A stretch of DNA of 64,000 nucleotides from Candidatus Nomurabacteria bacterium (GCA_023267375.1 JAHFNJ010000001.1:85878-149877); one strand, 5' to 3'; counted from the stretch's first letter, positions 3,559-23,808 are shown. Notes: generated by a model not told the origin, from the letters alone. Translations and numbers: made by a program.

Positions 3559-3627
3559 ACGCCTAAATAATACCACACGAGTATATTCTATCGAATATAG
3601 ATTATGGGGAAAACAAAAAGATACTCT

Positions 3628-7987: not shown

Positions 7988-9448
7988 TTATTCTACTATC
8001 AAAAATTCATCTGCAAGTGATGTCTCCATGGATTTTTTTCTGCGCAACCATAAAGAGGTACCGATACCACCCGCAACCAGGGCGATCAACCCGCCGGTAA
8101 ACAGTAAGTCATTTGGTTTTGCGGGCGTAGTAGATTCTTTTTGCGGAACCACCACATCAGGAGTTGTAGGCATCGCTGCCGCGGCAAGAACAACATTTGT
8201 GACACTATCGCCAAGCACTTCTGGTTTTATTGGACTATCCGTTACCGCTACAGGCGCTTTTATTTTTGGTTTTGTAACGGCGACAGCTATTTTTGCTTGT
8301 TCTGGAAATACTGAGGCAATAGTGGTATCAGGATATAGTAGCGCGACAGCCTGCCCAGGTTTTATTTCAATACCTAGATTTCGTCCAGCCAGAGTAATTT
8401 TTTTATCTTTTAAAATAATCGAGTTTTTAGGAAACACAAAACTGCTTTGCCCTGAACCAATCGTCCAACCTGAAATATCCATGTCAATGCCTGAAGTATT
8501 TGAAAGTTCAATGCCACCTTTCGCATCATACGAAATATGCGAAATAACAACACGTGGAGTGATCACACTCACTGTCGTCCGCGCGACCGCATCAGGCAAA
8601 GATCCAACAAAAACAGTTTCGTAATATTCAAGCGTCACCACATAGTCACCTGAATATGCAAAAGTGTGCGTGAAGGTACCTGGATCTTTTATATCTTCCC
8701 TGCTTGTACCGTCACCAAAATTCCAAACCCAACGACCTTGATCTAAGGTCTCGCGCTTCGTTCCAGTGGTCATTTCTGAAAAAGTTGTAGGGATTCCCGT
8801 TACGGCTTTTTGACTCGTAATAATTTTTGTAACTATCGGGGACAGAATAGTTGGATGTACATCTTGGGTATTTGTATTCACTAAAGTACTGCCCGCAATA
8901 TGTAGGGTGTCATTATTGTTGTTGTCTGTGTTGCTTTCGCCTTGATTTGCAGCATCTGGAGTTGGCTCACCACTCACCCACGAACCATCGACAAACTGCA
9001 TTGTTTCTTTAGTTGTATTATCACCCGCCGGCCAACCACTAGCAAAATCAAGTGAATCAACCACTTTTCCCGAAGCATCTTTAAGCACCAGATCTTCTCC
9101 TATGTTAGAAAGCCCTCCATTACCGAAGCTGCCAGATTCATCAGTAATTGAAGGCAGTGCATCAGGCATGGATGCTGTTGTCCGTTCAACAACCAAATAT
9201 CCGCCAGCACTAATTGTTTTCGAGAATGTAAAGATAAGCTTACTGCCACCGGCCTTTGCGAGCGTCCAACCAGAAAGTGACACACCCGTCGTGCCATTGT
9301 TATACAGTTCTACCCATTCGCCATATTGCCCGTTTGCTCCAGAAACCCCCATCCATGCAACCTCATTAATCAAGACATCAGCCTTCGCAAGCGCAGGCGT
9401 AAATAAAAATAATGCGATAAGAAAAAATAAATATTTCTTCATACTCAT
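7988..9448 (-). CDS. Secreted, membrane-anchored protein with two lamin-tail domains (LTD) and a central Ig/PKD-like segment
   Basis: Signal peptide MSMKKYLFFLIALFLFTPALA. An LTD signature begins DVLINEVAWMG...GEWVELYN. A second LTD-like block runs VVISHISYDAKGGIELSN...ISGWTI. The C-terminus has a TM anchor, LFTGGLIALVAGGIGTSLWLRRKK. The gene lies 27 nt downstream of ATPase-1 on the same strand. Confidence 0.7.
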   Translation of the reverse strand: MSMKKYLFFLIALFLFTPALAKADVLINEVAWMGVSGANGQYGEWVELYNNGTTGVSLSGWTLAKAGGSKLIFTFSKTISAGGYLVVERTTASMPDALPSITDESGSFGNGGLSNIGEDLVLKDASGKVVDSLDFASGWPAGDNTTKETMQFVDGSWVSGEPTPDAANQGESNTDNNNNDTLHIAGSTLVNTNTQDVHPTILSPIVTKIITSQKAVTGIPTTFSEMTTGTKRETLDQGRWVWNFGDGTSREDIKDPGTFTHTFAYSGDYVVTLEYYETVFVGSLPDAVARTTVSVITPRVVISHISYDAKGGIELSNTSGIDMDISGWTIGSGQSSFVFPKNSIILKDKKITLAGRNLGIEIKPGQAVALLYPDTTIASVFPEQAKIAVAVTKPKIKAPVAVTDSPIKPEVLGDSVTNVVLAAAAMPTTPDVVVPQKESTTPAKPNDLLFTGGLIALVAGGIGTSLWLRRKKSMETSLADEFLIVE

Positions 9449-9475: not shown

Positions 9476-11944
9476 TTACTCCAAAATTTTCCGCAGCACA
9501 TCTTCAGGTACTTCTTTCGGTTTCTTTGTTTTGACTGGTGCGGGTGTTTCCTCAGCCTTTTCAGGTTCTGCTTTCAATTCAGCTTGTTTCTTTGCCTGTT
9601 CTGCCGCTTCTTTTTCAATACGTGCCGCATTTTCAGCATACACCCTCCGCTCTTCATCAAGGCGTGCTTTTTCTCTTTTGATTTCTTCTTCCCGCTCTTT
9701 TAATTTTTGAATTGTTTCGGCTTCAACCTTCTTACGCTCCTCTTCTTCTTTTTGGCGACGTAACGCAGACTCTTTCTCATCTCGTTCTTTTTGTGCCTGT
9801 ATTTCCTGCTCACGCTCTTTTTGTACTCGCTCGCGTCGCTCCTTCTCTTCTTTTTCTTCGCGTTCTTTGAGTATGCGCAATTCCGCTTCCTCGCGCTTTT
9901 TTATTTCATCCCCAGTATCTTTGCTTTCAGCAGGGGCTGGTGGCGGAACAGGAACAGATGAAGAAGAAGGTACACTTGTTGGTGCGTTAGCTTTCATCGC
10001 TCGAGCAATAACATCTTTCAATCCAGAAACATGTTCTTCGGATGCTTCTTTTTTGGAAAATTTACTGAGAGCATCATTAACTGGGGCAGGATCTTTTTTG
10101 AGAGCTGCAAGTGACACCGGTTCTGGTTCTTTCTTTGGAATTTCCGCTTGTACTTCCTCTTTCACCTCTTCCTTGGGACGCGTAGAAAACACTACTCCAG
10201 CATTGTTGAGTGCTGCCGTTAATGCATCCTTCAAATTGGTACGATTTGGAAATTCTTTCTTTGGTCGTTCAGCTGCCTGACCACTCATTGGCGGATTCTT
10301 TTTAAATACTTTTGGCGCGCCACTATCAGCAGGAGCTCCGCCTGAATTGAATGTCGGAGCAATGCTTCGCGGGACAAATGGTTTTTTCGGACCAGTTTCT
10401 TGCGCGCCGAATTCAATACCGAGAGCAGAAAGATCTGCCACTGCACGGCGGTCATCACCTCGCCCCTTCATCATGAATCCCTGCGCTGGCTTCAATTCGC
10501 CGTTCTTAATTTTCAACATACAGTCCTTGCAGTAGACAGGTCGGCCAGGAATCGGTTCAAATGGCACCATGGTTGTCTTTCCGCAGTTTGAACATTCTGC
10601 TTTAAACTTTCCTTCCTCAACCAAATCACCTTCCCCGGTAATCGTCATACCACTCCACTTGTTTATTTCTGCCTCGATCACTCCCCGTGGACGTGTATAC
10701 AAATCGCGAGAAGACTGAATAATCTTATCAACCACTTCTTTCGAGTTTTCAACTTTGATCGGCGGTAATGTTGTCGCAGAAAATGGCCGACTCGTTATGC
10801 CATCAACCATCAGTTTCAAATACACATTATAGTTCGGCAGGTTCACAATATCCTGCGGCGTAAATTCCGGCTCAAATTCATTTTCCAAAAATTCTGCGTC
10901 AGCTGCACCGACACGGAAAATAATCATCGTTCCGACGTTACCGAACACGGCGTCGCGGACAATGGTATTTGATTCGGTCACCAACTGCCCGATGTACTGG
11001 TGCGCGAGCGTAAGGTTCAAGCGGTACTTACGAGCTTCCGAAAGAATGTTTGAAAACGAATCTGTTGCAAAGTTCTGGAATTCGTCGACGTACATGTAAA
11101 AGTCCTTACGATCATCTTCTGGGATACGCACACGTTCCATCGCTGCAAGCTGGATTTTCGTAATGAGCATACCTCCCAAAAGTGCAGAGTTATCTTCACC
11201 GATGCGTCCTTTCGATACGTTCACGAGAAAGATTTTTCCCGAGTTCATGATGTCAAAAATATCAATTGTCGATTTTGACTGACCAACCACGTTTCGAATA
11301 AGTGATGTCGACAGGAACTGCCCGACTTTGTTTTGAATCGGAGCGATTGCTTCGTTACGGAACTGATCGCGCCATGCTTCGTATTCATGGATCCAGAATG
11401 CTTTCACCACCGGATCTTTCAAGTTATTCACAATCGTCTGACGAAACTCCTTGTCCACCAGCAAACGCGGAATACCCAAGAGTGTGGAGCCGGGCGTGTC
11501 CAAGAGCGCCAAAATGGCGTTGTTCAAAATATATTCCATTCGGGCACTCCAAGCATTTGCCCAAATCTTAGTGAAGATGCCCATGAGGCCAGACGCCACC
11601 AAGTGCTTGTACTTAGGATCATCAATCTGAATGACGTTGAAACCGATATGGTAGTCCGTATCAGCAGGGTTGAAATACACCACGTCTTTGACGCGATGCG
11701 GCGGAATTGATTCCAAAATGCCTTCAACCAATTCACCGTGCGGGTCGATAACACAGACCCCCTCGCCATTCTGAATGTTCTGGATAATCATGTTGGAAAG
11801 AAGCACCGATTTACCGGTACCTGACTTTCCCAAAACATACATGTGCTGACGGCGGTCTTTTCGCTTTATGCCGAAGAGACGGTCGCTATTTCGGTAATTG
11901 GTTTTGGCAAAATACGTAATATCCTTTTTGGGATCGAGCTGCAT
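9476..11944 (-). CDS. Soluble TraD/VirD4-like (type IV coupling protein-like) P-loop ATPase of the FtsK-HerA superfamily, with a C-terminal zinc ribbon and a charged coiled-coil tail (ATPase-1)
   Basis: Walker A is GKSGTGKS, followed by VIDPHGE. The Walker B/TraG-D_C-like region reads YVDEFQNF...ARKYRLNLTLAHQYIGQL. No N-terminal TM helices. The C-terminus has CSNCGKTT...YCKDCM (CxxC-x18-CxxC), then a ~250 aa Lys/Glu/Arg-rich low-complexity tail. Paralogous to 22348..23808. Confidence 0.7.
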   Translation of the reverse strand: MQLDPKKDITYFAKTNYRNSDRLFGIKRKDRRQHMYVLGKSGTGKSVLLSNMIIQNIQNGEGVCVIDPHGELVEGILESIPPHRVKDVVYFNPADTDYHIGFNVIQIDDPKYKHLVASGLMGIFTKIWANAWSARMEYILNNAILALLDTPGSTLLGIPRLLVDKEFRQTIVNNLKDPVVKAFWIHEYEAWRDQFRNEAIAPIQNKVGQFLSTSLIRNVVGQSKSTIDIFDIMNSGKIFLVNVSKGRIGEDNSALLGGMLITKIQLAAMERVRIPEDDRKDFYMYVDEFQNFATDSFSNILSEARKYRLNLTLAHQYIGQLVTESNTIVRDAVFGNVGTMIIFRVGAADAEFLENEFEPEFTPQDIVNLPNYNVYLKLMVDGITSRPFSATTLPPIKVENSKEVVDKIIQSSRDLYTRPRGVIEAEINKWSGMTITGEGDLVEEGKFKAECSNCGKTTMVPFEPIPGRPVYCKDCMLKIKNGELKPAQGFMMKGRGDDRRAVADLSALGIEFGAQETGPKKPFVPRSIAPTFNSGGAPADSGAPKVFKKNPPMSGQAAERPKKEFPNRTNLKDALTAALNNAGVVFSTRPKEEVKEEVQAEIPKKEPEPVSLAALKKDPAPVNDALSKFSKKEASEEHVSGLKDVIARAMKANAPTSVPSSSSVPVPPPAPAESKDTGDEIKKREEAELRILKEREEKEEKERRERVQKEREQEIQAQKERDEKESALRRQKEEEERKKVEAETIQKLKEREEEIKREKARLDEERRVYAENAARIEKEAAEQAKKQAELKAEPEKAEETPAPVKTKKPKEVPEDVLRKILE

Positions 11945-11983: not shown

Positions 11984-13675
11984 CTACAATAGCTCCTTTT
12001 GGTAACACTCCTCGCAATAAACTGGACGAGGTTCTTTTTCCGTAAAAAAGGTCTCAAATGTATTGGAGCATTGCCCTGTATGATTGTGAGTTCCAGAACG
12101 GCAATCACATTGACGAGAAACGAGGTCATACCCACCTCGCATAGCTTCACGCTCAGCGTGTCGACAAAAGAAACATTCTGTCGGAATAGGAATAGAAAGT
12201 CTCTTATAGAGGAGTAATTCTTCGGGTAGAATCTTATAATTTCTTTGGCACTTTAGACATGCAAGGATTTCTTTCGTAAAAGAATCACTGACTTCATTGA
12301 TTGAATCTGGAACATCTTCTTGTTTAATTGTTTCCCTACCTCTTGTTTCCTGTATTTCATCTTGCCATTTATACCCTGCATTAAGCGCCTCTTCTTTTGA
12401 AAAAAGAAGCTCTTTCTGTGCTTGGGTTTCATTTACCCCGAATGGAGAATACTTTGTTGGGAAAAATTCCCCCCATTCTCCCCGTGATTTCATGTCAGCG
12501 ACAATTGTTTTATAGAGAGCTAGGTATTCTTCTTTTGAATACTTTTTATTAAGAATAGAGTATTCTCCTTTTTTAATACCCACGCAACCTAATAAATACT
12601 GTGAAGAGTGACAATCAAAACAGTATGCAACGTAATTATTTTTCCACGATTCGAGTGTCGCAATACTATGGTATGAATGATCTGGAGTAATACATTCATA
12701 GGAAAGTTCTGTTTCCCCTCCTACTGTACAGTCATAACATGATTTAAAAGTGACGCCATTATAGACATATTTTGAATCTTCCGAAAAAGATGCGAACATG
12801 GCGTTTTTGGTGTTTTTCGAACGAATCATATCAGTCCCAGTACACGAAACACAATTACGGAGTTCTGCGTACTGGCGAGGCTTATCTTGTAAAAATTCCC
12901 CAAACTCTTGCTTTGCTCTTTTATAACCGATTCGCGTATGTAAATTGTATGAAGCTATTATTTTTTCGTATTCCTCTTTTGAGTACTGTTTATTTTGGAA
13001 ATAGTACTTTTTGTTCCGAAGTCCCGATGACATAAAACAATCCTGACACCCGCGACAGTCGTAACAAAAAGCACAATTGATACAGGCGGTACACCAGTAA
13101 ACACTTTTACAATTTGAAACGCCATTTGCCATCGCTCCATCATAGGTATACTGTGATTCCTCTGCTATACCAAAACAGTCGGATAAATCTTTCCCTGCCG
13201 CAAGAGAGACAGAATTAAAAACGTTTTCGAGCTTCCATGCGATAAAAACCATGGCACAATTCTTTGAAAACGCCACATCGTTCGTATACAGACAATTCGT
13301 ACTGGCTATATCATTGTCATTTATTACGCCAAGTGTCGGCGTTCGTCTATATAAATCGATACATTGTTCAATAAAAGAACGCTTTGGATCATACTCCATA
13401 CCATAATCATATGGATTCCAATTATCACTATGAAAACATTTTGGACACAATAACGAAAATGGTGTGTTCGGTGCATAGATAGAAATAAATTTTTTGCTAC
13501 ATAAACTACACTCTCGAGAATAGAGAGTGCAATCATTTCTCCATGAAAGGCGGCGGATTCTGCGACAATGTGAGCAGAGCGTAGGAGCTGGGACTTCCAT
13601 TTTTTCGTAAAACGAAAAATCATCTGGTTCAATGATAAAATCCTTTTTGCAGTTTTGACAGTTGCGGGTTTCCAT
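11984..13675 (-). CDS. Cys-rich multi-zinc-ribbon protein, paralog A of a five-member tandem family (unnamed family)
   Basis: 563 aa. Two N-terminal zinc ribbons (CQNC..CSHC and CSLC..CPKC). A central region has dense CxxC arrays and an internally duplicated LRNKKY..N.QYSKEEY motif. Two C-terminal zinc ribbons. No signal peptide. ATG at 13673-13675, only 4 nt from the stop of paralog B. Confidence 0.75.
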   Translation of the reverse strand: METRNCQNCKKDFIIEPDDFSFYEKMEVPAPTLCSHCRRIRRLSWRNDCTLYSRECSLCSKKFISIYAPNTPFSLLCPKCFHSDNWNPYDYGMEYDPKRSFIEQCIDLYRRTPTLGVINDNDIASTNCLYTNDVAFSKNCAMVFIAWKLENVFNSVSLAAGKDLSDCFGIAEESQYTYDGAMANGVSNCKSVYWCTACINCAFCYDCRGCQDCFMSSGLRNKKYYFQNKQYSKEEYEKIIASYNLHTRIGYKRAKQEFGEFLQDKPRQYAELRNCVSCTGTDMIRSKNTKNAMFASFSEDSKYVYNGVTFKSCYDCTVGGETELSYECITPDHSYHSIATLESWKNNYVAYCFDCHSSQYLLGCVGIKKGEYSILNKKYSKEEYLALYKTIVADMKSRGEWGEFFPTKYSPFGVNETQAQKELLFSKEEALNAGYKWQDEIQETRGRETIKQEDVPDSINEVSDSFTKEILACLKCQRNYKILPEELLLYKRLSIPIPTECFFCRHAEREAMRGGYDLVSRQCDCRSGTHNHTGQCSNTFETFFTEKEPRPVYCEECYQKELL

Positions 13676-13679
13676 AAAA

Positions 13680-15380
13680 TCAAACTATCTCTTGCTGATA
13701 ACAGCTTTCACAATACACAATCTCAGGTCTATTTGGCGCGTAACCCGTTTTCATAGCATTGCCACATTTATCGCAATTGCGATCATAGAGCTTCGGTGGG
13801 TTTGTTCGATCAAAACGCTCCTTCTGTCGACAAGTTGGACACCGAGAAGGTAGAGGCATACTGAGTTTACGCATTAACGAAAGTTCATTGGAAACAACAC
13901 GGAACGCCTTATTGCAACTTTCACAGGCAATCACTTCGTTAACAATTTCATCTTTTGTTCCGGTTATTGTATCTGGAATTTCATCTGCTTTTTTTGTGAT
14001 AGCGTACTGATTGGTTTCTGGCTCAAGCCAATCCATTCCATAGGCTGCAACTTCTTCTTGTGTCTTTGGAAAATAACGATGCGCAACAGTTTCATTGTAT
14101 GCAAATGGCGAAAAATCAAGAGGTAGAAATTCACCATACTTCCACTCCCTTCCTAATGCATCTATATATGGATTCTTCACCATATCTTCGCGAATGTGCG
14201 CAGCCAACTTTTCATATTCTTCCTTTGAATATTCTTTGTTTAAAATACAGTATTCTTTGCGCTTCAAACTCACACAACCAAAAACATTTTTAGACGCAAT
14301 TGTATATATACAATATTCATTATAAAGCGCGTTCGGCCAACTTTGATAACAAAATTTAACGTTATTTGCTCCTTCTCCTACGATCATACATTCATAAATA
14401 AGTTCTGCTCCATTTCCCCAACCTGTGTAATCGTAACAATCTCGTGCTGATGGAACACTAATCCAACCAATGTATCGCGAATCTTCTACTCCTGAAACCA
14501 TATATGCATTCTTTGCATTTTTTGATTCATACACATAATCCCCGGTAACATTTACATTTAAACTGTTACCACTGTATGCACGACGCGGATATGTATCCCA
14601 GAATGCTCGTGCTTTTTGTTTTATTCCATTGAGGGCCGAGCGAGAATCTAAGTTAAACTCTTTCAATTTCTCAAAATATCCTTCGCGAGAATACTGTTCA
14701 TTAAATATGCAGTAACTTTTATTGCGCAAGTTTACACAACCAAAACAATTCACACACCCAGCACAACTTCGAGAAAACCAAGTATCAGTACATGAATCAC
14801 ATTCTTCAGAAAAAAATGTGTTGTAACACTTATTACAACCAACATCTTCATAGCACAGCTCACAATCCTTCATGCGATAACAATCAGCTGAATCTTTGAG
14901 AGTCATAAGATACGATGAATAGAAGGTGTTCTCGCAGTAATCTGCCCAAAACGTCATATAGGTATTTTTCTGATAAGCTACAGCATTTGTGTATTCACTG
15001 TTCTCAAGAGTCAAATAAGCGCTTTCAAGTGCTGGCCATGGGACCGTATCGAGAAATTCCTTCATCTGCGCAAGAAATGGACGAGTTTGGTCATATTCTT
15101 TCGCATATTCAGTACCATCCCAGTCATCAGCCCACCAGCACTTCTGACAGTAAACAATTCGCTTGCGTTGCGGAGAAAAAACACTAAGCATGTTTTTTTT
15201 TCCACACTTGGCACAATCCCGTTTGTAAAGACTCCAGACATCGTTAAATGAAAGACGTCTGATTAGGCGGCATTCTGGGCACCATGTTGGTGGAGGAACT
15301 TTTATCTTCTCGTAAAAACCAAAATCATCTGGTTCTATCGTAAAATCTTTTTTACAGTTTTGGCAGTTTTTAGTTTCCAT
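13680..15380 (-). CDS. Cys-rich multi-zinc-ribbon protein, paralog B
   Basis: The ORF as given starts at a TTG (15407). The ATG at 15378-15380 gives METKNCQNCKKDF, which aligns with the N-termini of the other paralogs and lies 2 nt after the stop of paralog C. Same architecture as A. Confidence 0.75.
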   Translation of the reverse strand: METKNCQNCKKDFTIEPDDFGFYEKIKVPPPTWCPECRLIRRLSFNDVWSLYKRDCAKCGKKNMLSVFSPQRKRIVYCQKCWWADDWDGTEYAKEYDQTRPFLAQMKEFLDTVPWPALESAYLTLENSEYTNAVAYQKNTYMTFWADYCENTFYSSYLMTLKDSADCYRMKDCELCYEDVGCNKCYNTFFSEECDSCTDTWFSRSCAGCVNCFGCVNLRNKSYCIFNEQYSREGYFEKLKEFNLDSRSALNGIKQKARAFWDTYPRRAYSGNSLNVNVTGDYVYESKNAKNAYMVSGVEDSRYIGWISVPSARDCYDYTGWGNGAELIYECMIVGEGANNVKFCYQSWPNALYNEYCIYTIASKNVFGCVSLKRKEYCILNKEYSKEEYEKLAAHIREDMVKNPYIDALGREWKYGEFLPLDFSPFAYNETVAHRYFPKTQEEVAAYGMDWLEPETNQYAITKKADEIPDTITGTKDEIVNEVIACESCNKAFRVVSNELSLMRKLSMPLPSRCPTCRQKERFDRTNPPKLYDRNCDKCGNAMKTGYAPNRPEIVYCESCYQQEIV

Positions 15381-15382
15381 AA

Positions 15383-17080
15383 TTAAACAATTTCTTTTGT
15401 ATAACAATCCTTACAATAAACGATCGGTTTATTCTTGAGTAATTTAGAGACAGGTGTGGTTTTACCACATTGCACACATTGGCAGGTAGTCATTTTTGAT
15501 TCATCAAGCCACATATCGAGCTTTTCTCCTATGCGACAAAAAGGACACGCTCGTGGAAGCGGAAAGTGTCGGCCACGAAGAAAATCAAGTTCTGCTCTCA
15601 CAATCTTAAACCCTTTTTTACATAAAGTACACTGAATCACCTCTTTTAGAATCGTCTCGTCCACATCTTTGATATTGTCGGGCAAATCTTCGCTTCTTTT
15701 AGTAATTGCATGCTCAGTCGGTGTTTTCTCTTGCCAGTTATAACCATAGCTTACTGCATCACTCTCAGTCATTGGAAATACTCGCTGGGCCACTGTGGCA
15801 TTGTATGTCCAAGGACTTAGTGCTATTGGGAAAAATTCACCATAACGATAGACGTTGCCCCGCTTATCGGTATATGGCATGTCATTCATCTGTTGAATAA
15901 TTTTTCCACGAAGTGCATAAAATTCTTCTTTAGAGTACGGCTTATTAAAAATCGTGTACTCTCCTTTTTTTACACTCACGCACCCGAAAAATCCTCTCCC
16001 ACCAATAGTAAGAAATGAGTACTCCATGTCACTCCCCCCGATTGCACTTAATACACTCCATTTTATATTTTGAGCATTTTCACCTATAGTGAGAGAATCA
16101 TAAGAAAGTTCAGCACCTCCCCACCCAGTAATATCATATGAATCCTTCGTGTCATGTAAAAAATGAAGATACCTACCATCTTGGCACGTAACCAACTCAA
16201 AAGAATCTTTGCAATTTTTTGATTCAAAGATCATGTTCCCTGTGCAGCCAACAGACATGTCATCATAGTAGGCTTTTTGTGGAAACGAATCCCAATGTTT
16301 TTCCGTTTCCTTTTTTATTCCTTGATACTGTGCATACGACCCAAAATCGATCTGATCCAATCTATTAGAATATTCTTCTTTGGAAAGAGGTTCATTAAAA
16401 TAGTGGTATTTTTTATTTCTCAAATTCGCCGACCCAAAACAATTTTGGCAATTAGCGCAATTGCGCAAGAAATGGCAATTCATTGATTCAGTCACTTGAT
16501 TCCGCAACCCGACTCCACCGCTCACTTTAAAGATATGCATTGAGTCATAGCATCGATCGGAGCTCATAACGAGTGACGAATCAAGCATGGTGTTACTATG
16601 CATAATATAAACACCATAGGATGCATCCTCAGTCCAGTCGGTATTAAAAACCAAATAACAATTCTTAAGCGAACCAGTGTAGTTTGTATAGGGAGATGTC
16701 GCAATCACATTCTGCTCAATCGCAAGTGCAAGATGCGGGACTTCGTGCATAAGCTCATCAAACTGCTCAAAAAATGACCGAGAAAAATCGTAGTCGCGAG
16801 CATACGAAAGCGGGTCCCAACCATCGCCCCACCAACACGTCGGGCAATATACTGTATAGTTTGCTTCGAGTGGATACATAGAAATAGTATCTTTCTTACA
16901 TAAATCACAGGGACGTTTGTAGAGCGTTACTAAATTAAAAAAAGCGAGCCGACGCTGCAATCGACACTCTGCACAAAAGGTCGGCGGAGGTACTTTCATT
17001 TTTTCGTAAAAAGAAAAATCATCAGGTTCGATAGTAAACTGATTCTTACAATTCTGACAATTTTTTGTTTCTGAATTCAT
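15383..17080 (-). CDS. Cys-rich multi-zinc-ribbon protein, paralog C
   Basis: 565 aa, N-terminus MNSETKNCQNCKNQFTIEPDDFSFYEKMKVPPPTFCAECR. Shared WW.D.WDP and GEFFP motifs. Both copies of the LRNKKY..N...SKEEY motif are present, as are the C-terminal zinc ribbons. Confidence 0.75.
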   Translation of the reverse strand: MNSETKNCQNCKNQFTIEPDDFSFYEKMKVPPPTFCAECRLQRRLAFFNLVTLYKRPCDLCKKDTISMYPLEANYTVYCPTCWWGDGWDPLSYARDYDFSRSFFEQFDELMHEVPHLALAIEQNVIATSPYTNYTGSLKNCYLVFNTDWTEDASYGVYIMHSNTMLDSSLVMSSDRCYDSMHIFKVSGGVGLRNQVTESMNCHFLRNCANCQNCFGSANLRNKKYHYFNEPLSKEEYSNRLDQIDFGSYAQYQGIKKETEKHWDSFPQKAYYDDMSVGCTGNMIFESKNCKDSFELVTCQDGRYLHFLHDTKDSYDITGWGGAELSYDSLTIGENAQNIKWSVLSAIGGSDMEYSFLTIGGRGFFGCVSVKKGEYTIFNKPYSKEEFYALRGKIIQQMNDMPYTDKRGNVYRYGEFFPIALSPWTYNATVAQRVFPMTESDAVSYGYNWQEKTPTEHAITKRSEDLPDNIKDVDETILKEVIQCTLCKKGFKIVRAELDFLRGRHFPLPRACPFCRIGEKLDMWLDESKMTTCQCVQCGKTTPVSKLLKNKPIVYCKDCYTKEIV

Positions 17081-17141
17081 TTTATATAAAAAGAAACCAT
17101 GAGCGAGATGTGGCTCGCTTTAGCATTTTAAAATCGAATAC

Positions 17142-17447
17142 TCACCGCATCGTCTCAACCATCCATTCTTTATAGCTGTGATTCAATCGACGAATATCAA
17201 CTCCAGCTACAAGCGGTACACTATATGTATGATTTTGGGAAATAATGGTCTCAACTTCCTGCAATTTCGATTCGAGTGTCGTAATCAAAAGAATCGCTTG
17301 CAAATGATCTTTCATTACTCCTTCATACATATATATCGATTCGACAGGCCAAAAATCAACACAGGCCCCCACTTTTCGCGAGATGATGAGTGATCCCAAT
17401 TTTTTCGCTTCGGCTGTGGTTTCGCATGTTGTATAGACAAATACCAT
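17142..17447 (-). CDS. cutA: CutA1-like divalent-cation tolerance protein
   Basis: 101 aa. The motif GACVDFWPVESIYMYEGV...LLITTLES...HTYSVPLVAGVDI...YKEWMVE fits the CutA fold signature. It is followed on the minus strand by the hairpin GAGCGAG-ATGTGG-CTCGCT. Confidence 0.65.
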   Translation of the reverse strand: MVFVYTTCETTAEAKKLGSLIISRKVGACVDFWPVESIYMYEGVMKDHLQAILLITTLESKLQEVETIISQNHTYSVPLVAGVDIRRLNHSYKEWMVETMR

Positions 17448-17580
17448 AGAAATAGAGCCTTTTGGGCTTAATTAGCTTTCGACCTTTACGCTTTCATTAT
17501 ACACCTCAAAAAGCTAATCAATTTGATTGACGAAAGAAGCAAATACTGTATAATTTTTCAAAAATCAAAACTATACTGAA

Positions 17581-18024
17581 ATGAAGAAACTACTGCTCAT
17601 TCTGATGGTTGTCCTGACACAAACAGTGTACGCACAACCCAAAACTACACCTTCCCTTCCTGATGAAGATTACCGTCGCCCACCAATGTCACTCAAAGAA
17701 AAACATGTGTTGGCTATCAAAAACTACATTCCTGACCCGTGCCAGGAATCGTATGTAGTAAACAATAGTACAATTTATCGTTATCGTGATGTAAATAAAA
17801 ATGTGATCTTGTTGTTTCTTCCCAAAGATACAACCGTCGGCTTTGCGGTAGCCACCCACGACACGCTCGGCAATCACATGTTTATTCCATTTACAATCGA
17901 TAAAAAAATGTTCTTCTGGTATCTCGAAGAAAACGATAAAATAACATCGGAAGAAAACCTTGATGCACTGATGGAAGAAATTATTGTTATCTTATGGAAC
18001 AAGGACAAAAAGGCAAGGATGTAG
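17581..18024 (+). CDS. Small secreted protein (147 aa), hypothetical
   Basis: Signal peptide MKKLLLILMVVLTQTVYAQ. No known domain. It is the only plus-strand gene inside the paralog array. Confidence 0.55.
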   Translation: MKKLLLILMVVLTQTVYAQPKTTPSLPDEDYRRPPMSLKEKHVLAIKNYIPDPCQESYVVNNSTIYRYRDVNKNVILLFLPKDTTVGFAVATHDTLGNHMFIPFTIDKKMFFWYLEENDKITSEENLDALMEEIIVILWNKDKKARM

Positions 18025-18034
18025 GAATGTAATC

Positions 18035-18071
18035 TTTAAAGGGATGTTCGCTTTGCGAACATCCCTTTAAA
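18035..18071. terminator. Bidirectional rho-independent terminator
   Basis: TTTAAAGGGATGTTCGC-TTTGC-GAACATCCCTTTAAA: a perfect 14-bp stem between the convergent genes 17581..18024 (+) and paralog D (-). Confidence 0.7.
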
Positions 18072-18097
18072 TTTTAATATTAGCCACTAGACATTTC

Positions 18098-19837
18098 TCA
18101 TATAACTTCCTTTTGGTAGCAACTTTCACAATAAACTTTTTCCGGTCGCTCTGGCGCATAGCTTGTTTCAAATTCATTTGAACACTTACCGGAATGCTCA
18201 TGACTTCCCTCTTCGCACATACATGAACGATGCCAGAGTTTTAGCGGATTACGCAAACGGAGGCGTTTATAGTGTCGGCAATTGGGGCAGTGTCGAGGGG
18301 CAGCAATTGAATTCTTTTTTAAAAACAACAACTCTTCACTGGTTATTCGATATGCCCCCGTACACTGTGTAAGTTCACTTCCCCCTCCAAGACAAGCGAT
18401 GGTCTCATTTAAAATAGAGTTCTCCAGCTCATTTATATGATCTGGCAATTCACTCGCTTGTTTTGTAATTTTATAATCTTTATGTTCTGGTTTTCGAAAT
18501 AAGTATCCTTGAGCCTGTATTTCTTCTTCTTTTTTTGGAAAATATTCTTGGGCAATTGTTTCATTGTAGGCAAATGGCGAAATTTCACTCGGAAAAAATT
18601 CTCCGTATCGATACACCTGCCCCTTTGCATCAAGATACGGTACTGCTCGCATATGCTCTATAATTTTTGGTACCAATGTTTCGTATTCTTCCTTAGTATA
18701 TTGTTTATTCAAAATACAATACTCTTTTTTTCTCAAACCAATACATCCAAAAAGATTTTTAGAGTTGTAACACATGTAAGTATAACGAGTATTAAAAGAA
18801 CTATGTGTCAAAACGGCAAAATACTGATTTGCAGCTTTAATACCCGAATCAATTCCTTCATAGAGAAGCGTCGCCCCTCCACCACAACCATAACCGTCAT
18901 ATCCTTCTTTCAGGTCGATGACATGGGAAATATATTTTGAATCTTCAACTTCTCCGAAAACATCAAAACAGTATTTAACATTTTTTGAATTTCCGATATT
19001 GTCACCAGTTGCATTAACCGATTTGCCGATATTGCCATACTTATGTGGAAACTTTAGTACAAAATCGGAGTATTTTTCTTCAAAATTGGAGAGCGCTTTG
19101 TAACTTCCAAAATCTAAGGATTTTTTTTGATCCATGTATTCTTCTTTAGTGTACTGAGTATTGTAGATGCAATATTGTTTATTGCGAAGATTAATACAGC
19201 CGATACAATCTCGAAGATTTTTAGAGTGTTGCAGAAAAAAAGAATTGATTGATTCATCTGTGTTATATGAATAATGGGTCTGATAAAGGCCAGTACAAAT
19301 AACATCATTGGAGCTTTGCTCAGATTTTTCAACCGTGTCTATATCCATGCAATCTTTAAGTTCAACAGCACCACGAGAGTATGCCACTCTTTCATTGTTA
19401 AACGAGGCAAATGTTAAATAGCAATCTTTGCAATCAGCATTATGGTTGCCATAAGGAGAATTGACGACATTTGTATTTCCTAAATTTGCCAGAGGTACGA
19501 GAGAAAGCAACTTTTGAAATTGCTCAAAAAATGGTCGGGAAAAATCATATTCTTGACCAAACTCTATTGGATCCCATTCATCGCTCCACCAAATATCTCG
19601 ATCGTAGACTACTACCGGCGCCTCGGGGTGGAACATGGTTATCACCTGTTTGCCAGTTTTCGCACAGGTGCGTTTAAAGAGAGACCGTTCATTGCGCCAT
19701 GTTAGGCGACGAATCATTCTACATTCCGGACAAAATGTCGGTGGCGGCACTTTAATTTTCGTATAAAAATCAAAGTCTTCAGGTTCTATTGTGAAGTCTT
19801 GTTTGCAGTTTTGGCAGGTTTTTGTTTGAGAGTTCAT
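18098..19837 (-). CDS. Cys-rich multi-zinc-ribbon protein, paralog D
   Basis: 579 aa, N-terminus MNSQTKTCQNCKQDFTIEPEDFDFYTKIKVPPPTFCPECR. Both ..LRNKQYCIYNTQYTKEEY motifs are present. The C-terminus, CMCEEGSHEHSGKCSNEFETSYAPERPEKVYCESCYQKEVI, resembles that of paralog A. The stop of paralog E is 3 nt upstream. Confidence 0.75.
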   Translation of the reverse strand: MNSQTKTCQNCKQDFTIEPEDFDFYTKIKVPPPTFCPECRMIRRLTWRNERSLFKRTCAKTGKQVITMFHPEAPVVVYDRDIWWSDEWDPIEFGQEYDFSRPFFEQFQKLLSLVPLANLGNTNVVNSPYGNHNADCKDCYLTFASFNNERVAYSRGAVELKDCMDIDTVEKSEQSSNDVICTGLYQTHYSYNTDESINSFFLQHSKNLRDCIGCINLRNKQYCIYNTQYTKEEYMDQKKSLDFGSYKALSNFEEKYSDFVLKFPHKYGNIGKSVNATGDNIGNSKNVKYCFDVFGEVEDSKYISHVIDLKEGYDGYGCGGGATLLYEGIDSGIKAANQYFAVLTHSSFNTRYTYMCYNSKNLFGCIGLRKKEYCILNKQYTKEEYETLVPKIIEHMRAVPYLDAKGQVYRYGEFFPSEISPFAYNETIAQEYFPKKEEEIQAQGYLFRKPEHKDYKITKQASELPDHINELENSILNETIACLGGGSELTQCTGAYRITSEELLFLKKNSIAAPRHCPNCRHYKRLRLRNPLKLWHRSCMCEEGSHEHSGKCSNEFETSYAPERPEKVYCESCYQKEVI

Positions 19838-19840
19838 ACA

Positions 19841-21490
19841 CTAAGAAATTTCTCGTTGGTAGCAATCAATACAGGCGATCTTCTGATAGCCCCATGATTT
19901 TGGATAGTATGCCACCACCTCCTTCGCACAGTACGTGCAGCTATACTGTTCCCCTTTAGTTTGACTCATCGGCAACAATCGCTCTTTCGTTCGCACATCA
20001 AAGTGTACTCGCGGTAACGCGATATTTTTCCGCCTTAAAAATTGCAATTCTGTCTCTGCAATATTGTATCTCCAACCAGTAACCGGACAGATAAGCGCCT
20101 GTTTTGGAAGTGATGGATCAGCATTGGTGACTAAATCAGGAAGTTCTGACGTAGGAATACCTTCTACTTTTTTACCCTCACCCTCTTCCCAATACCCTCC
20201 GCGTTCAGCTATATACTCTTTTGTTACCTCAGGGAAATAGACAGCTGCAGTTGAAAGATTGTACGGACACAATCCGAGTGAGTATGGCGGAAACTTTCCA
20301 TACTCTCCTCGTACTTTCATATCTGCAATTATTTTTTCTTTCAAAGCTTCATATTCTTCCTTTGTATATTCTTTATTCAAAATACTGTATTTTTTCTTTC
20401 GTAGTCCGACACATCCAAAACAGTAATCCACTTCCAAGCATTGGTCACAGTATTCACTATAACGAGCACCATCACACCAAATGGAATATTTAAGCTGATA
20501 CCCATTGGTACAACAGCTATTATTTCCAGAATTTTCTAGCGTCCAGCAACCAGTCAGATCGATTGCGTCTTTTGTCTTTAACCCACGAAGACAGTTGGTA
20601 CAATTTTCTGATTCTTCCCAGCAAAAAACATTTGTACAGTTATTACAATTAGACATGTACGTACCCGTAGAATTTGTAGTTTTAATATTAAAGTTCTCTC
20701 GATGAACTGCATTTGATTTCAGAAGTTCAGCATATTGTTTTTTATATTTCTCCAATTGAACATGGGAACCCAAGTTAATTCCCTTCATTTTTTCTTCATA
20801 CTCTTCTTTAGTGTATTGTATATTTTCAATGCAGTATGACTTTCCTCTCAGATTCCAGCTCATAAAACAGTGCTGGCAGTTACGACAATCAAATAAAAAT
20901 GCACTTTCTATGCAATCTCTACAGTTCCTTGAAAAAAGAAGGCTATAGGAATTGAAACAGTACCCACAGTCATAGCATTGATCGAGCGTAAATACATGCG
21001 AAATGTCCGCTGAGTCTTTGCAATCCATGGCACGATAGCCATAGAGAAGATTCTCTGATCTTGCTATCGAACGAGAAAGGTAGCAATTTTTGGAATCCCA
21101 GGCATCATCAGCCCATTCACAGCCGACACTATTAGTCCCCATTTGATGGGGACGTGGCACTTTCTCTTGCAGTTCTTTGAGTTGCTCAAAAAACGGTCGA
21201 CTGGAATCATAGTCTTGTCCGTAGCTCATTGGATCCCAGGCATCACTCCACCATTCTTTGGCAGTATAGATAGGATAACGTGGATTTTCTGGCAATACTG
21301 TAATAAATTTTTCCCCAGAAAGACTAGAGGTACCTGCACGGAATTTACCAAACGGCCAGAAGGCAAAATGGTGTTTCCAACGACATGGAACACAGATATC
21401 AGGAACTTCAATCCCGACTTTTTCGTACATGCCACTCTCTCTGTCAGTTATATCAAATCCTACCTTACAATAGGCGCAGGTCTTTTGCAT
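19841..21490 (-). CDS. Cys-rich multi-zinc-ribbon protein, paralog E (most divergent, partly degenerate)
   Basis: 549 aa. N-terminus MQKTCAYCKVGFDITDRESGMYEKVGIEVPDICVPCR. It keeps WWSDAWDP, SRPFFEQ, both LRGKSYCIENIQYTKEEY / LRKKKYSILNKEYTKEEY motifs and the final zinc ribbon (CTYC..CIDC). It lacks the second N-terminal ribbon and the first C-terminal ribbon. Confidence 0.7.
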   Translation of the reverse strand: MQKTCAYCKVGFDITDRESGMYEKVGIEVPDICVPCRWKHHFAFWPFGKFRAGTSSLSGEKFITVLPENPRYPIYTAKEWWSDAWDPMSYGQDYDSSRPFFEQLKELQEKVPRPHQMGTNSVGCEWADDAWDSKNCYLSRSIARSENLLYGYRAMDCKDSADISHVFTLDQCYDCGYCFNSYSLLFSRNCRDCIESAFLFDCRNCQHCFMSWNLRGKSYCIENIQYTKEEYEEKMKGINLGSHVQLEKYKKQYAELLKSNAVHRENFNIKTTNSTGTYMSNCNNCTNVFCWEESENCTNCLRGLKTKDAIDLTGCWTLENSGNNSCCTNGYQLKYSIWCDGARYSEYCDQCLEVDYCFGCVGLRKKKYSILNKEYTKEEYEALKEKIIADMKVRGEYGKFPPYSLGLCPYNLSTAAVYFPEVTKEYIAERGGYWEEGEGKKVEGIPTSELPDLVTNADPSLPKQALICPVTGWRYNIAETELQFLRRKNIALPRVHFDVRTKERLLPMSQTKGEQYSCTYCAKEVVAYYPKSWGYQKIACIDCYQREIS

Positions 21491-22347: not shown

Positions 22348-23808
22348 TTAGATTAACGGCTCAGCGTTTTCTTCTACTTTCACTTCTGCTTTTACTTCTC
22401 CGCGTCCTTTACCAGTAATCGCGGCCTTTTCTTGGGCGCTGCGGATAATGGTGGATTCTTCCTCTTCAATAAGTTTTCTCGCCATGTCCATCGGAATGGA
22501 ATATTTTTTACGAGAAGCTTCAACAATGCGCTCACGGTACGATGGATGCGGTGGCGGTAATACTTTCAATGTTTCAGCAGAAAACGGATCGTACGATTCC
22601 CCATCGATTGTCATCTTGATAAAAAATTCGCCGATACCCAAGTTGATCATATCTTTTACATCGAATACTGGCGCAAATTCAGGCTTCAATTTTACGGCAT
22701 CGTCACCACCCACGCGGAAGGAAATGATCGAACCGACGTTACCGAGCACCGCCGCCTGCACCTTTGGAAGCAATTGACCGACGTATTGATGTGCCACGGT
22801 CAGATTCAATCCATACTTACGCGCCTCAGAGAGAATGTTTTCAAATGTATCAGTCACGATGTTTTGAAACTCGTCTACGTAAATATAAAAATCATCACGC
22901 TTGTCATGAGCAATTTTGGCGCGCGCCATTCCAGCTTGTTTGATTTTCGTGACAAACATCGAACCAAAGAAGCTTGAATTTTCTTCACCGATCTTTCCTT
23001 TTGAAAGGTTGATGAAAATGAGTTTCTTCGAATTCATAAGCTTTTCAATATCAATTTTGTTTTCTTTCTGTCCGAAGATGTTGCGAAGCATTGGGTCAGA
23101 GAGAAATTGTCCAAGTTTGTTCACAAGCGGAATGATCGCGTCCGTATCAAATTTTTCAGACCAGTCAGCAAATTCGATTGCCCAAAAGCGCTTCACCATA
23201 TCGTCTTCGATATATTCCACCACCTTTTGACGGTAGTTACGATCAGTCAACATCGAAATCATGCCGCGCATGGTAGCGTGCGGATAGTCGAGGAGTGCGA
23301 GCACAGTAAAACGAAATACGTGCTCAAGACGCGGCGTCCAGTTCGCACCGAATTGCTTTTCCATCACTTCAATGAGACCTTGGGTCAATTGGTGTTTGAA
23401 TGTTGGATCAACGTTTGCAAGCGGGTTGAATGACACTGGATATTCATAGTCAGATGGATCAATGATACAGACGTCATCAATACGCTCCTCGGGAACGAAC
23501 GCAAGAATATCTTCAATCGCTTCACCGTGCGGATCGACAAGGCAGAGTCCATGACCATACGCGATGTCTTGGCGAATCATGAGTTCCAATAGTTTTGACT
23601 TACCAACACCAGACTTACCGATGATATAGAGGTGACGACGGCGATCAACACGCTTTATGCCGAAGATAAATTTCTTTTCTTCGAGCGCTGCAACGTAGTT
23701 TGTACGTCCAATAAACGAAATTTCCTCAGGTCGAACCTGCCCATGAATCGGTAGTTCTGGTGGCGGAGACGCGTATTTGATTATTTGGATTTTATTGGCT
23801 CGAGCCAT
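22348..23808 (-). CDS. Soluble TraD/VirD4-like P-loop ATPase of the FtsK-HerA superfamily (ATPase-2), paralog of 9476..11944
   Basis: Walker A GKSGVGKS, then LVDPHGEA. Walker B/TraG-D_C-like region YVDEFQNI...ARKYGLNLTVAHQYVGQL. It aligns along its length with the N-terminal 480 aa of ATPase-1 and lacks the zinc-ribbon/charged tail. Its ATG overlaps the TAA of the upstream ABC exporter (TAATG). Confidence 0.7.
   Translation of the reverse strand: MARANKIQIIKYASPPPELPIHGQVRPEEISFIGRTNYVAALEEKKFIFGIKRVDRRRHLYIIGKSGVGKSKLLELMIRQDIAYGHGLCLVDPHGEAIEDILAFVPEERIDDVCIIDPSDYEYPVSFNPLANVDPTFKHQLTQGLIEVMEKQFGANWTPRLEHVFRFTVLALLDYPHATMRGMISMLTDRNYRQKVVEYIEDDMVKRFWAIEFADWSEKFDTDAIIPLVNKLGQFLSDPMLRNIFGQKENKIDIEKLMNSKKLIFINLSKGKIGEENSSFFGSMFVTKIKQAGMARAKIAHDKRDDFYIYVDEFQNIVTDTFENILSEARKYGLNLTVAHQYVGQLLPKVQAAVLGNVGSIISFRVGGDDAVKLKPEFAPVFDVKDMINLGIGEFFIKMTIDGESYDPFSAETLKVLPPPHPSYRERIVEASRKKYSIPMDMARKLIEEEESTIIRSAQEKAAITGKGRGEVKAEVKVEENAEPLI

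Follow-up and report, generated by a model that had tools for sequence, protein, structure and literature searches.

Zinc-ribbon paralogs with a predicted β-solenoid core share a conserved gene neighbourhood with paired VirD4/TrwB-like ATPases in Patescibacteria

Closest described systems

Conjugative coupling proteins use an all-α domain to bind their partners, and in Gram-positive bacteria there is precedent for a coupling protein that is itself soluble and relies on a separate membrane protein for its recruitment (cf. the soluble TraJ of pIP501). A survey of 2,918 Patescibacteria genomes counted 5,713 VirD4-like coupling-protein homologues, 148 of them near virB4, and its authors leave room for a different, exapted function of these proteins (PMC12102498, 2025). 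Here we describe a locus of Candidatus Nomurabacteria bacterium (GCA_023267375.1 JAHFNJ010000001.1:85878-149877; this whole 64-kb stretch, 64,000 nucleotides, is called the window) in which five paralogous genes encoding large cysteine-rich proteins, at positions 11984-21490, lie between the genes of two VirD4/TrwB-like ATPases, named here the 486-type and the 822-type.

In the logic of the system, the type IV coupling proteins (VirD4, TrwB, TraD-TraM) come closest, motor genes adjoining candidate partner genes in both cases. The flanking ATPases share with them the P-loop and the TrwB all-α domain; as for the TraM-recognition region, the 822-type exceeds the threshold and the 486-type stands at its limit. 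The locus differs from type IV secretion systems (T4SS), however, in that no relaxase, virB4 or channel genes are found nearby, and in the absence of a membrane anchor and of a mobile element. Unlike the coupling proteins of mobile elements, the ATPases of the window are encoded as a pair on the chromosome and show about 75-80% conservation between lineages, and the paralogs resemble no known relaxosome protein or effector.

As regards the paralogs, the closest fold is that of the antifreeze protein of Tenebrio molitor (TmAFP, PDB 1ezg; PF02420), a resemblance of fold in which homology is not demonstrated. The likeness lies in a narrow right-handed β-helix of 12-residue coils with cysteines at fixed inward positions, and a faint precomputed PF02420 match exists on one family member, none being obtained in our own Pfam scans. 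In contrast to TmAFP, the family has no TCT ice-binding ladder in the 12-residue register, its cysteines are spaced by 3, 9 and 12 residues and not by 6, and each chain would contain two solenoids set between zinc-ribbon modules. Moreover, the family is cytoplasmic and has no signal peptide, and therefore a disulfide-braced core of the TmAFP style is unlikely. The closest domains are zf_Tbcl (PF13451), zf_Tbcl_2 (PF23477) and TIGR04272, which match the ribbons and are of the same type as the domain carried by the 822-type ATPase. These are small stand-alone or accessory domains that cover less than 30% of the family protein and nothing of its core, and most window copies score below their curated thresholds. 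Finally, the C-CAP/tubulin cofactor C/RP2 domains, the bactofilins and the pentapeptide-repeat proteins are likewise soluble, capped, right-handed β-helices that offer rigid protein-binding surfaces. They differ in coil length and motifs, their scores are those that any β-helix gives, and, apart from one weak Pfam match to TBCC in the family, no relation at the level of hidden Markov models (HMMs) was found.

Architecture of the paralogs

All five genes are intact open reading frames (ORFs) on the minus strand: paralog A (11984-13675; 563 aa, 38 Cys), B (13680-15380; 566 aa counted from the ATG at 15380, a TTG-extended ORF reaching 15407), C (15383-17080; 565 aa), D (18098-19837; 579 aa) and E (19841-21490; 549 aa, the most divergent copy). 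A and B are separated by 4 nt, B and C by 2 nt, and D and E by 3 nt. A first-pass annotation of the sequence had described five same-strand paralogs of one shared architecture spaced by 2-4 nt within A/B/C and D/E, and in this it was right. The motifs that it quoted, WWSDxWDP, SRPFFEQ, the duplicated LRNKxYxIxNxxYsKEEY and GEFFP, are all present across the alignment of the five proteins.

Two nested duplications organize the chain. HHalign comparison relates the N-terminal double ribbon of paralog C (residues 4-84; ribbons 1-2, 16829-17071, minus strand) to the C-terminal one (residues 480-563; ribbons 3-4, 15392-15643, minus strand) with a probability of 99.3% and an E value of 1.7e-20. Inside this frame, the first half of the core (about residues 132-245; solenoid repeat 1, 16346-16687, minus strand) is related to the second (about residues 281-394; solenoid repeat 2, 15899-16240, minus strand) with a probability of 98.8% and an E value of 5.8e-17, so that the internal duplication already suspected is real. 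Hence, the domain order is A-B-B′-A′, a palindromic architecture of about 565 aa with double ribbons at the ends and two duplicated solenoids between them. At each end stands a double zinc ribbon of the treble-clef, CxxC-x17-CxxC type with a basic helix after it; the LRNKxYxIxNxxYsKEEY turn and helix cap each solenoid, and a conserved aromatic-rich segment, YGEFFP...SPFxYNET, stands after the solenoids. At the DNA level the KEEY-motif element occurs nine times, about 450 nt apart within genes.

Cysteine occupancy was computed over 205 full-length members from 83 loci. It is about 100% in ribbon 1, 100% in ribbon 4, 88-99% in ribbon 3 and 62-82% in ribbon 2, which is complete, with all four cysteines, in about 62% of the members. 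In the window, CxxC-x17/18-CxxC is found in ribbons 2 and 4 of A, B and C, and in ribbon 4 of all five proteins. The four terminal ribbons that had been attributed to every copy are all intact in B, but ribbon 2 is degenerate in D, and E, with ribbons 1 and 4 intact, lacks ribbons 2 and 3. Of 41 members, 17 have ribbons that match PF13451 and 13 have ribbons that match PF23477, with a best E value of 2e-09. Among the window paralogs only B exceeds the PF23477 cut-off of 27 bits (37.4 bits), A and C remaining below it (17.7 and 19.5 bits) and D and E giving no match, and none reaches the 36 bits of TIGR04272. Small Methanosarcina proteins carrying the CxxC-x17-CxxC domain bind zinc, as measured by inductively coupled plasma mass spectrometry (PMC12704099), and from these motifs and the Methanosarcina proteins of the same domain, the terminal ribbons of the family probably bind zinc as well. 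The proteins are mildly acidic overall (isoelectric point, pI, 5.4-6.1), but their charge is unevenly spread, the core being acidic and the C-terminal ribbon module basic (net charge +7.8). No signal peptide was found in the paralogs, and the hydrophobicity scan detected no segment of membrane-helix length in the five proteins, as the first reading of the sequence had it; one of the 205 family members has such a segment.

Some ribbons carry variations. Ribbon 4 of A (about 12068-12112, minus strand) and of D (about 18180-18230) contains an extra CxC-x3-HxH-x3-C insert (CDCRSGTHNHTGQC and CMCEEGSHEHSGKC, respectively), which could be an additional Cys/His metal site, and a longer version of it is found in family member P0175. 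In another member, P0261 (731 aa), the CxxC pairs of ribbons 1 and 3 are each reduced to a single cysteine, and the chain is extended at its N-terminus by about 180 aa that resemble a GNAT acetyltransferase; this could represent a real fusion or a merge made in gene calling.

The cysteines of the core follow another rule. The five window proteins contain 26-38 cysteines per chain (22-43 family-wide, median 34), and those of the core recur with a period of 12 (for instance 141/153/165/177 and 290/302/314), their spacings being almost exclusively multiples of 3 with peaks at 3, 9 and 12. Written in rows of 12, the core shows a repeated x-[KE]-[ND]-[CS] rung. Core occupancy is about 30-80%, C214 and C367 reaching 94-97%, and the positions are freely swapped for Ser, Val, Ile, Leu or Ala with weak covariation (phi <= 0.46). 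In the best-conserved rung, CxxCxxCxxC, each position is occupied in 70-97% of the members, and all four cysteines are present in 91 of the 205 (44%). A full-length AlphaFold2 model of paralog C is a compact monomer with a mean predicted local distance difference test score (pLDDT) of 84.7 and a predicted TM-score (pTM) of 0.86, and the core, when modelled by itself, superposes on the β-helix of TmAFP at 14% sequence identity. We conclude that the core is predicted to form two narrow right-handed β-solenoids with 12-residue coils, in which the buried ladder positions favour cysteine, and that only the two to four terminal ribbons would be obligate metal sites. The central cysteines had been taken for zinc-ribbon CxxC/NCxNC arrays; the 12-residue spacing, the free substitution, the weak covariation and the TmAFP superposition speak otherwise.

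Two further folds were considered for the core and rejected. A cysteine cluster of the Fe-S or metallothionein type does not fit a rung that is complete in 91 of 205 members only, with ligand positions changed to Leu, Ser or Ala and a maximal phi of 0.46, and Pfam scans gave no Fer4, ferredoxin, metallothionein or Fe-S match. The left-handed β-helix of hexapeptide transferases (LpxA, γ-carbonic anhydrase) would need the [LIV]-G-x4 hexapeptide, 18-residue coils and trimeric sites, a combination that the family does not show.

The family and its ATPase neighbours in Patescibacteria

The first-pass annotation did not recognise the family, and the searches agree with it. The core has no Pfam or NCBIfam model, scans of the paralogs with Pfam, NCBIfam and PADLOC giving terminal zinc-finger matches only; a profile search against PDB sequences found no whole-protein relative, only LIM/CRP noise on the C-terminal ribbons (E 0.005). 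All database records for the family are unnamed or "hypothetical protein", as is the outcome of a cluster name look-up, and no whole-protein match to a well-characterised housekeeping family was obtained. A literature search of incomplete coverage found no description of the family, of its link with the ATPases or of DUF8128, a neighbouring protein considered below, and a metatranscriptome paper on cultivated Paceibacteria makes no mention of the family (PMC10936435).

Relatives are abundant. Paralog C has more than 4,500 database homologues, of which the 120 listed are 560-608 aa long and 49-62% identical to it, and an exhaustive profile search (E<=1e-30) yielded no fewer than 2,175 clusters at 50% identity, with nearly all of the best 150 at full length. 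In a set of species-representative genomes, at least 545 stretches encode relatives, and the best 80 are nearly all titled Patescibacteria, a named lineage of the candidate phyla radiation (Jorgensen-, Staskawicz-, Giovannoni-, Nomura-, Morani-, Magasanik- and Sungbacteria, Paceibacterota) or an unclassified metagenome-assembled genome. Some titles read "uncultured Saccharibacteria" and two Gammaproteobacteria or Bdellovibrionales, labels that we judged untrustworthy. We take the family to be restricted to Patescibacteria (Parcubacteria lineages). Each locus contains 1-11 copies. No relatives were found in a scan of viral contigs, and PADLOC defence models gave no match for paralogs C or E and only generic HerA/mad8 P-loop matches for the ATPases.

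Paralogs B-E are 29-38% identical to A, and the best in-window match of each paralog is 32-45%. For each of them, 17-59 other loci contain relatives that are closer than its best match in the window; for D there are 35 other loci with relatives closer than any in-window paralog, and E, which scores 585 bits with the family HMM, has its closest relatives elsewhere at 47-59% identity. Divergence between the paralogs is even along the chain, with 27-36% identity per segment except ribbon 1 (55%). The DNA of the copies is 60-80% similar, at motif sites only, and long or near-identical DNA repeats are absent among the five genes, which argues against recent duplication or gene conversion. The closer relatives in other loci and the even divergence therefore indicate that the five copies belong to anciently separated paralog classes and would be neither a private nor a diversifying expansion. 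The nearest non-identical relatives are only about 62% identical in protein, and synonymous sites would therefore be saturated for an analysis of the ratio of nonsynonymous to synonymous substitution rates.

The 822-type ATPase (9476-11944, minus strand) begins 39 nt downstream of paralog A, and the 486-type (22348-23808, minus strand; matched by Pfam and NCBIfam models) lies upstream of the array. They are 44% identical (BLASTP E 2e-132), and both are P-loop ATPases of the VirD4/TrwB/HerA type, which bears out the coupling-protein-like character first ascribed to them. The 822-type has a Walker A motif GKSGTGKS, a Walker B motif VDEFQN and its own CxxC-x17-CxxC ribbon at aa 447-478, and it exceeds the Pfam cut-offs for PF10412, PF12696 (25.9 bits, cut-off 22), PF01935 and PF23477, with 55.6 bits for TIGR04272. 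PF10412 scores 42.3 and 23.7 bits in the two ATPases (cut-off 20.5) and PF02534 28.5 bits in the 486-type (cut-off 20.1). TrwB_AAD_bind is above cut-off in both, and TraG-D_C is above it in the 822-type and just below in the 486-type (21.9 vs 22 bits), while the NCBIfam equivalog scores of both ATPases are all far below cut-offs. No transmembrane (TM) anchor was found in either, no hydrophobic window reaching 1.6, and neither the window nor the annotated related loci yielded a virB4, relaxase or T4SS channel gene.

These ATPases are strongly conserved. The 486-type shares 79-88% identity with its best 120 listed homologues, leaving aside a single exact copy, and over the collected loci the median identity to the window proteins is 79% for the 486-type and 75% for the 822-type, against 47% for CutA1, 45% for MreB and 32-44% for the family paralogs. 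Conservation far above that of MreB and CutA1 suggests a core cellular role for the ATPases.

Such constraint is unusual for a coupling-protein homologue. The 822-type orthologues are 594-950 aa long and vary in the length of the tail. In the window, the C-terminal portion of about 340 aa (9476 to about 10500, minus strand) is, after the ribbon, rich in Pro, Ala and Ser and then extremely rich in Glu, Lys and Arg (EREEKEEKERRERVQKEREQE...), and this last stretch looks like a charged single α-helix or a coiled-coil spacer.

The neighbourhood was sampled in two ways, through 83 loci centred on the family and through four loci on long contigs picked solely for a 486-type ATPase. In the first sample the ATPases are by far the most enriched partner, with 57 ATPase-cluster genes in 30 of the 83 loci, on the same strand as the arrays and flanking or interleaved with them. 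In the second, all four loci hold both ATPase types and one to three family members within 10 kb; by our estimate, in a genome of about 0.6-1 Mb one given gene would fall within +/-10 kb by chance in roughly 2-3% of cases. The order of the window is [486], E, D, CutA1, C, B, A, [822], and an order [486]-family(1-7)-[822] recurs in it and in loci L012, L046, L048, L057, L087 and L088, L048 and L057 showing the minimal form with one family gene between both ATPases. The genes around the module vary, from SecDF/sigma to UvrABC (two of the four ATPase-chosen loci) and GrpE-DnaK-DnaJ (one of the four). The three-part neighbourhood of the family and two soluble, paired, conserved ATPases is thus conserved in many Patescibacteria lineages, and the partnership with the ATPases that had been suspected is supported by it. 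As to whether arrays always occur together with TraD/VirD4-like ATPases, which the first-pass annotation had proposed to check, an ATPase is missing within 10 kb in about 60% of the family-centred loci; short contigs and secondary arrays account for many of these loci, but some are long.

The next partners, found in 10-14 loci each, are MreB, an ABC transporter, a sigma-70-r4/HARE helix-turn-helix protein, CutA1, a LeuRS-like protein and two uncharacterised clusters, of which one is a TM protein of about 179 aa. CutA is present in 12 of the 83 loci, where it is usually flanked by the 486-type ATPase and the first family member, and a frequent order is SecD-SecF-sigma/HARE-DUF8128-179aa-[486 ATPase]-CutA1-family array-[822 ATPase]. 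An invariable succession of paralog classes, as in an operon of subunits, was looked for and rejected, the order varying between loci.

Directly upstream of the 486-type in many relatives stand a protein of about 470 aa with two TM segments (DUF8128 by its source label; 15 loci) and the protein of about 179 aa, which has one, as in L005 (5808-7235 and 7240-7779) and 10-15 other loci (L009, L010, L012, L014, L019, L027, L061 and others). DUF8128 is not a degenerate paralog of the ATPases, to which it has no similarity; it was pulled into their cluster by BLAST single-linkage clustering. In L089 (Candidatus Nomurabacteria, GCA_021413905.1; 1193-12601) the module is interleaved with the Hsp70 chaperone operon, in the order GrpE - family member - ... 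- DnaK - 822-type - ... - 486-type - DnaJ, an arrangement of a single lineage that hints at a possible connection with proteostasis.

A motor pair and its possible adaptors

Taking into account that: (i) the ATPases keep the partner-binding all-α domain; (ii) the ribbon of the 822-type is of the kind found in the family, and (iii) relatives encode TM proteins that could serve as tethers, we propose that the paralogs act in the cytoplasm as adaptors or clients of a chromosomal pair of coupling-protein-like motors that has been exapted. In the model, the five paralogs and the two soluble VirD4/TrwB-like ATPases, which would be hexameric, constitute one chromosomal module of housekeeping grade. 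The rigid acidic solenoid would provide a class-specific recognition surface or a spacer, and the two terminal ribbon modules, which are basic, would provide the docking contact with the motor or with nucleic acid. Each paralog class would be a distinct adaptor or client engaged by the ATPase pair, and in many relatives the motor would probably be tethered to the membrane by DUF8128 and the 179-aa TM protein. We hold the structural and evolutionary description with high confidence. That the family works with the two ATPases is read from the gene neighbourhood; the adaptor or client mechanism is offered as a conjecture that may well prove wrong, and the proposal taken whole, structure included, comes close to an even chance without attaining it.

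Several observations weigh against this proposal. The functional link derives from gene neighbourhood, most family-centred loci (the 60% mentioned above) lack a nearby ATPase, and the order of the paralog classes relative to the ATPases varies between loci. The window itself does not contain the two TM genes (DUF8128, 179-aa) found upstream elsewhere. An acidic pI of about 6 speaks against general nucleic-acid binding, and zinc binding is deduced from the motifs and from the likeness to the Methanosarcina proteins. As to the structure, the solenoid parts of the full-length model are only moderately confident (pLDDT 58-70), and the core of paralog A modelled alone (residues 105-400; 12476-13363, minus strand) gave a pTM of 0.58.

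A bolder form of the adaptor proposal can be stated, although we consider it somewhat unlikely: the two soluble ATPases and the zinc-ribbon/β-solenoid family would be a previously unrecognised core machine, in which 1-11 classes act as interchangeable adaptors that choose DNA, RNA or protein clients for ATP-driven translocation or remodelling. If true, this would be a lineage-defining system without counterpart in other bacteria, such VirD4-like ATPases numbering about two per Patescibacteria genome. Many Patescibacteria, with genomes of about 0.6-1 Mb, spend 1-3% of them on up to eleven copies of a 1.7-kb gene, and this investment, together with a constraint on the ATPases above that on MreB, points to a central, lineage-specific and so far unannotated function. 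In the published survey nearly all VirD4-like genes of Patescibacteria lie away from secretion genes; the locus offers concrete candidate partners and makes their role testable. The building blocks are known folds, but the core architecture, in which treble-clef zinc fingers cap a cytoplasmic double solenoid of antifreeze type with cysteine ladders, and the conserved module have no known counterpart, and we infer their function from context.

Among the alternatives, a structural or scaffolding role independent of the ATPases, for instance as a cytoskeleton-like heteromeric β-solenoid, survives best, and we rate it as unlikely. Ancient classes with one-to-one-like relatives call to mind the subunits of a heteromeric assembly, MreB recurs among the neighbours (14 loci), and for many arrays no ATPase is seen within 10 kb. 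The window is moreover an ordinary piece of chromosome (UvrA/B/C, TGT, DnaG, RpoB/C, MreB, three tRNAs), and in such a core-gene block adjacency could reflect conserved gene order. However, the trio stays together while its surroundings change, which is the usual signature of functional coupling; the capped solenoid ends and the compact monomer model speak against end-to-end polymerisation, and Pfam scans gave no match to bactofilin or any other cytoskeletal HMM.

We regard it as improbable that the paralogs are T4SS effectors delivered by the ATPases into a host cell. Coupling-protein genes usually adjoin those of substrates or relaxosome proteins (PMC12102498, and established knowledge of T4SS), and T4SS genes occur widely in Patescibacteria, one cultivated species being unable to grow epibiotically without them. 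Multi-copy arrays look like effector repertoires, and the C-terminal ribbon module is positively charged, as are many T4SS signals. Effectors, on the other hand, usually turn over fast, whereas here paralog classes and length are kept across orders whose hosts are presumably different. The chain ends in a folded zinc ribbon without a disordered tail, and zinc-stabilised folds are poor substrates for unfolding. Against delivery stand also the lack of virB4 in the window and in annotated related loci, the ATPases without TM anchors and the dispensability of a coupling-protein homologue in one cited transposon-sequencing study.

An intracellular buffer or store of Zn, Cu or Fe, or a carrier of Fe-S or other metal clusters, tied to CutA1, is very unlikely. 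The median of 34 cysteines per chain and the well-occupied CxxCxxCxxC rung would suit it, and so would CutA1, a family of divalent-ion tolerance present in or beside arrays in at least 12 loci, and a P-type cation ATPase that adjoins one array. But the core cysteines are individually dispensable, the full rung occurs in fewer than half of the members, the spacing follows the geometry of the solenoid, ferredoxin, metallothionein and Fe-S models gave no Pfam match, and the biochemical role of CutA1 is itself ill-defined. As to the lineage-specific expansion of a metal-binding recognition module under strong diversifying selection, put forward in the first-pass annotation and in keeping with five copies in one locus, numbers of 1-11 between genomes and in-window identities of 29-45%, it is largely refuted and scarcely credible, given the closer relatives of every copy in many other genomes, the even divergence without any hypervariable region, the restriction of DNA similarity to motif sites without recent duplication, and scans that gave neither viral-contig relatives nor defence-model matches.

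The locus had also been said to consist entirely of paralogs, but two genes separate C from D. The CutA1-family gene (17142-17447, minus strand; 101 aa, PF03091, E 8.5e-23) is directly upstream of paralog C, a position in which it is seen again in other lineages, and an ORF of 147 aa (17581-18024, plus strand) lies between CutA1 and D. The latter has a sigma-70-like promoter at 17527-17554 (11/12 match), and a hairpin with a 17-bp stem and T/A-rich flanks, detected by the terminator scan at 18035-18071, stands between this ORF and the convergent paralog D; it is likely to be a bidirectional terminator, which would also end the E-D transcription unit. Apart from this hairpin and this promoter, the promoter and terminator scans of the locus gave results no better than shuffled sequence. 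The product of the 147-aa ORF has a signal-peptide-like N-terminus and no database family, and the insertion is also found in two metagenome contigs with an identical locus (L001, L002).

Beyond the array, the gene directly downstream of the 822-type (7988-9448, minus strand) encodes a secreted protein with lamin-tail and PKD domains, an N-terminal signal and a C-terminal TM segment, which takes the same place in L088 (21142-) and L090 (15902-17335). A pair formed by an extracytoplasmic function sigma factor and DUF5667 is found nearby in the window and in L087. At the edge of the window (19-3576, minus strand), a protein of 1,185 aa contains Laminin_G_3, a concanavalin-like lectin domain, and GLUG motifs, and probably belongs among the large surface or adhesion proteins considered in connection with the attachment of Patescibacteria to their hosts.

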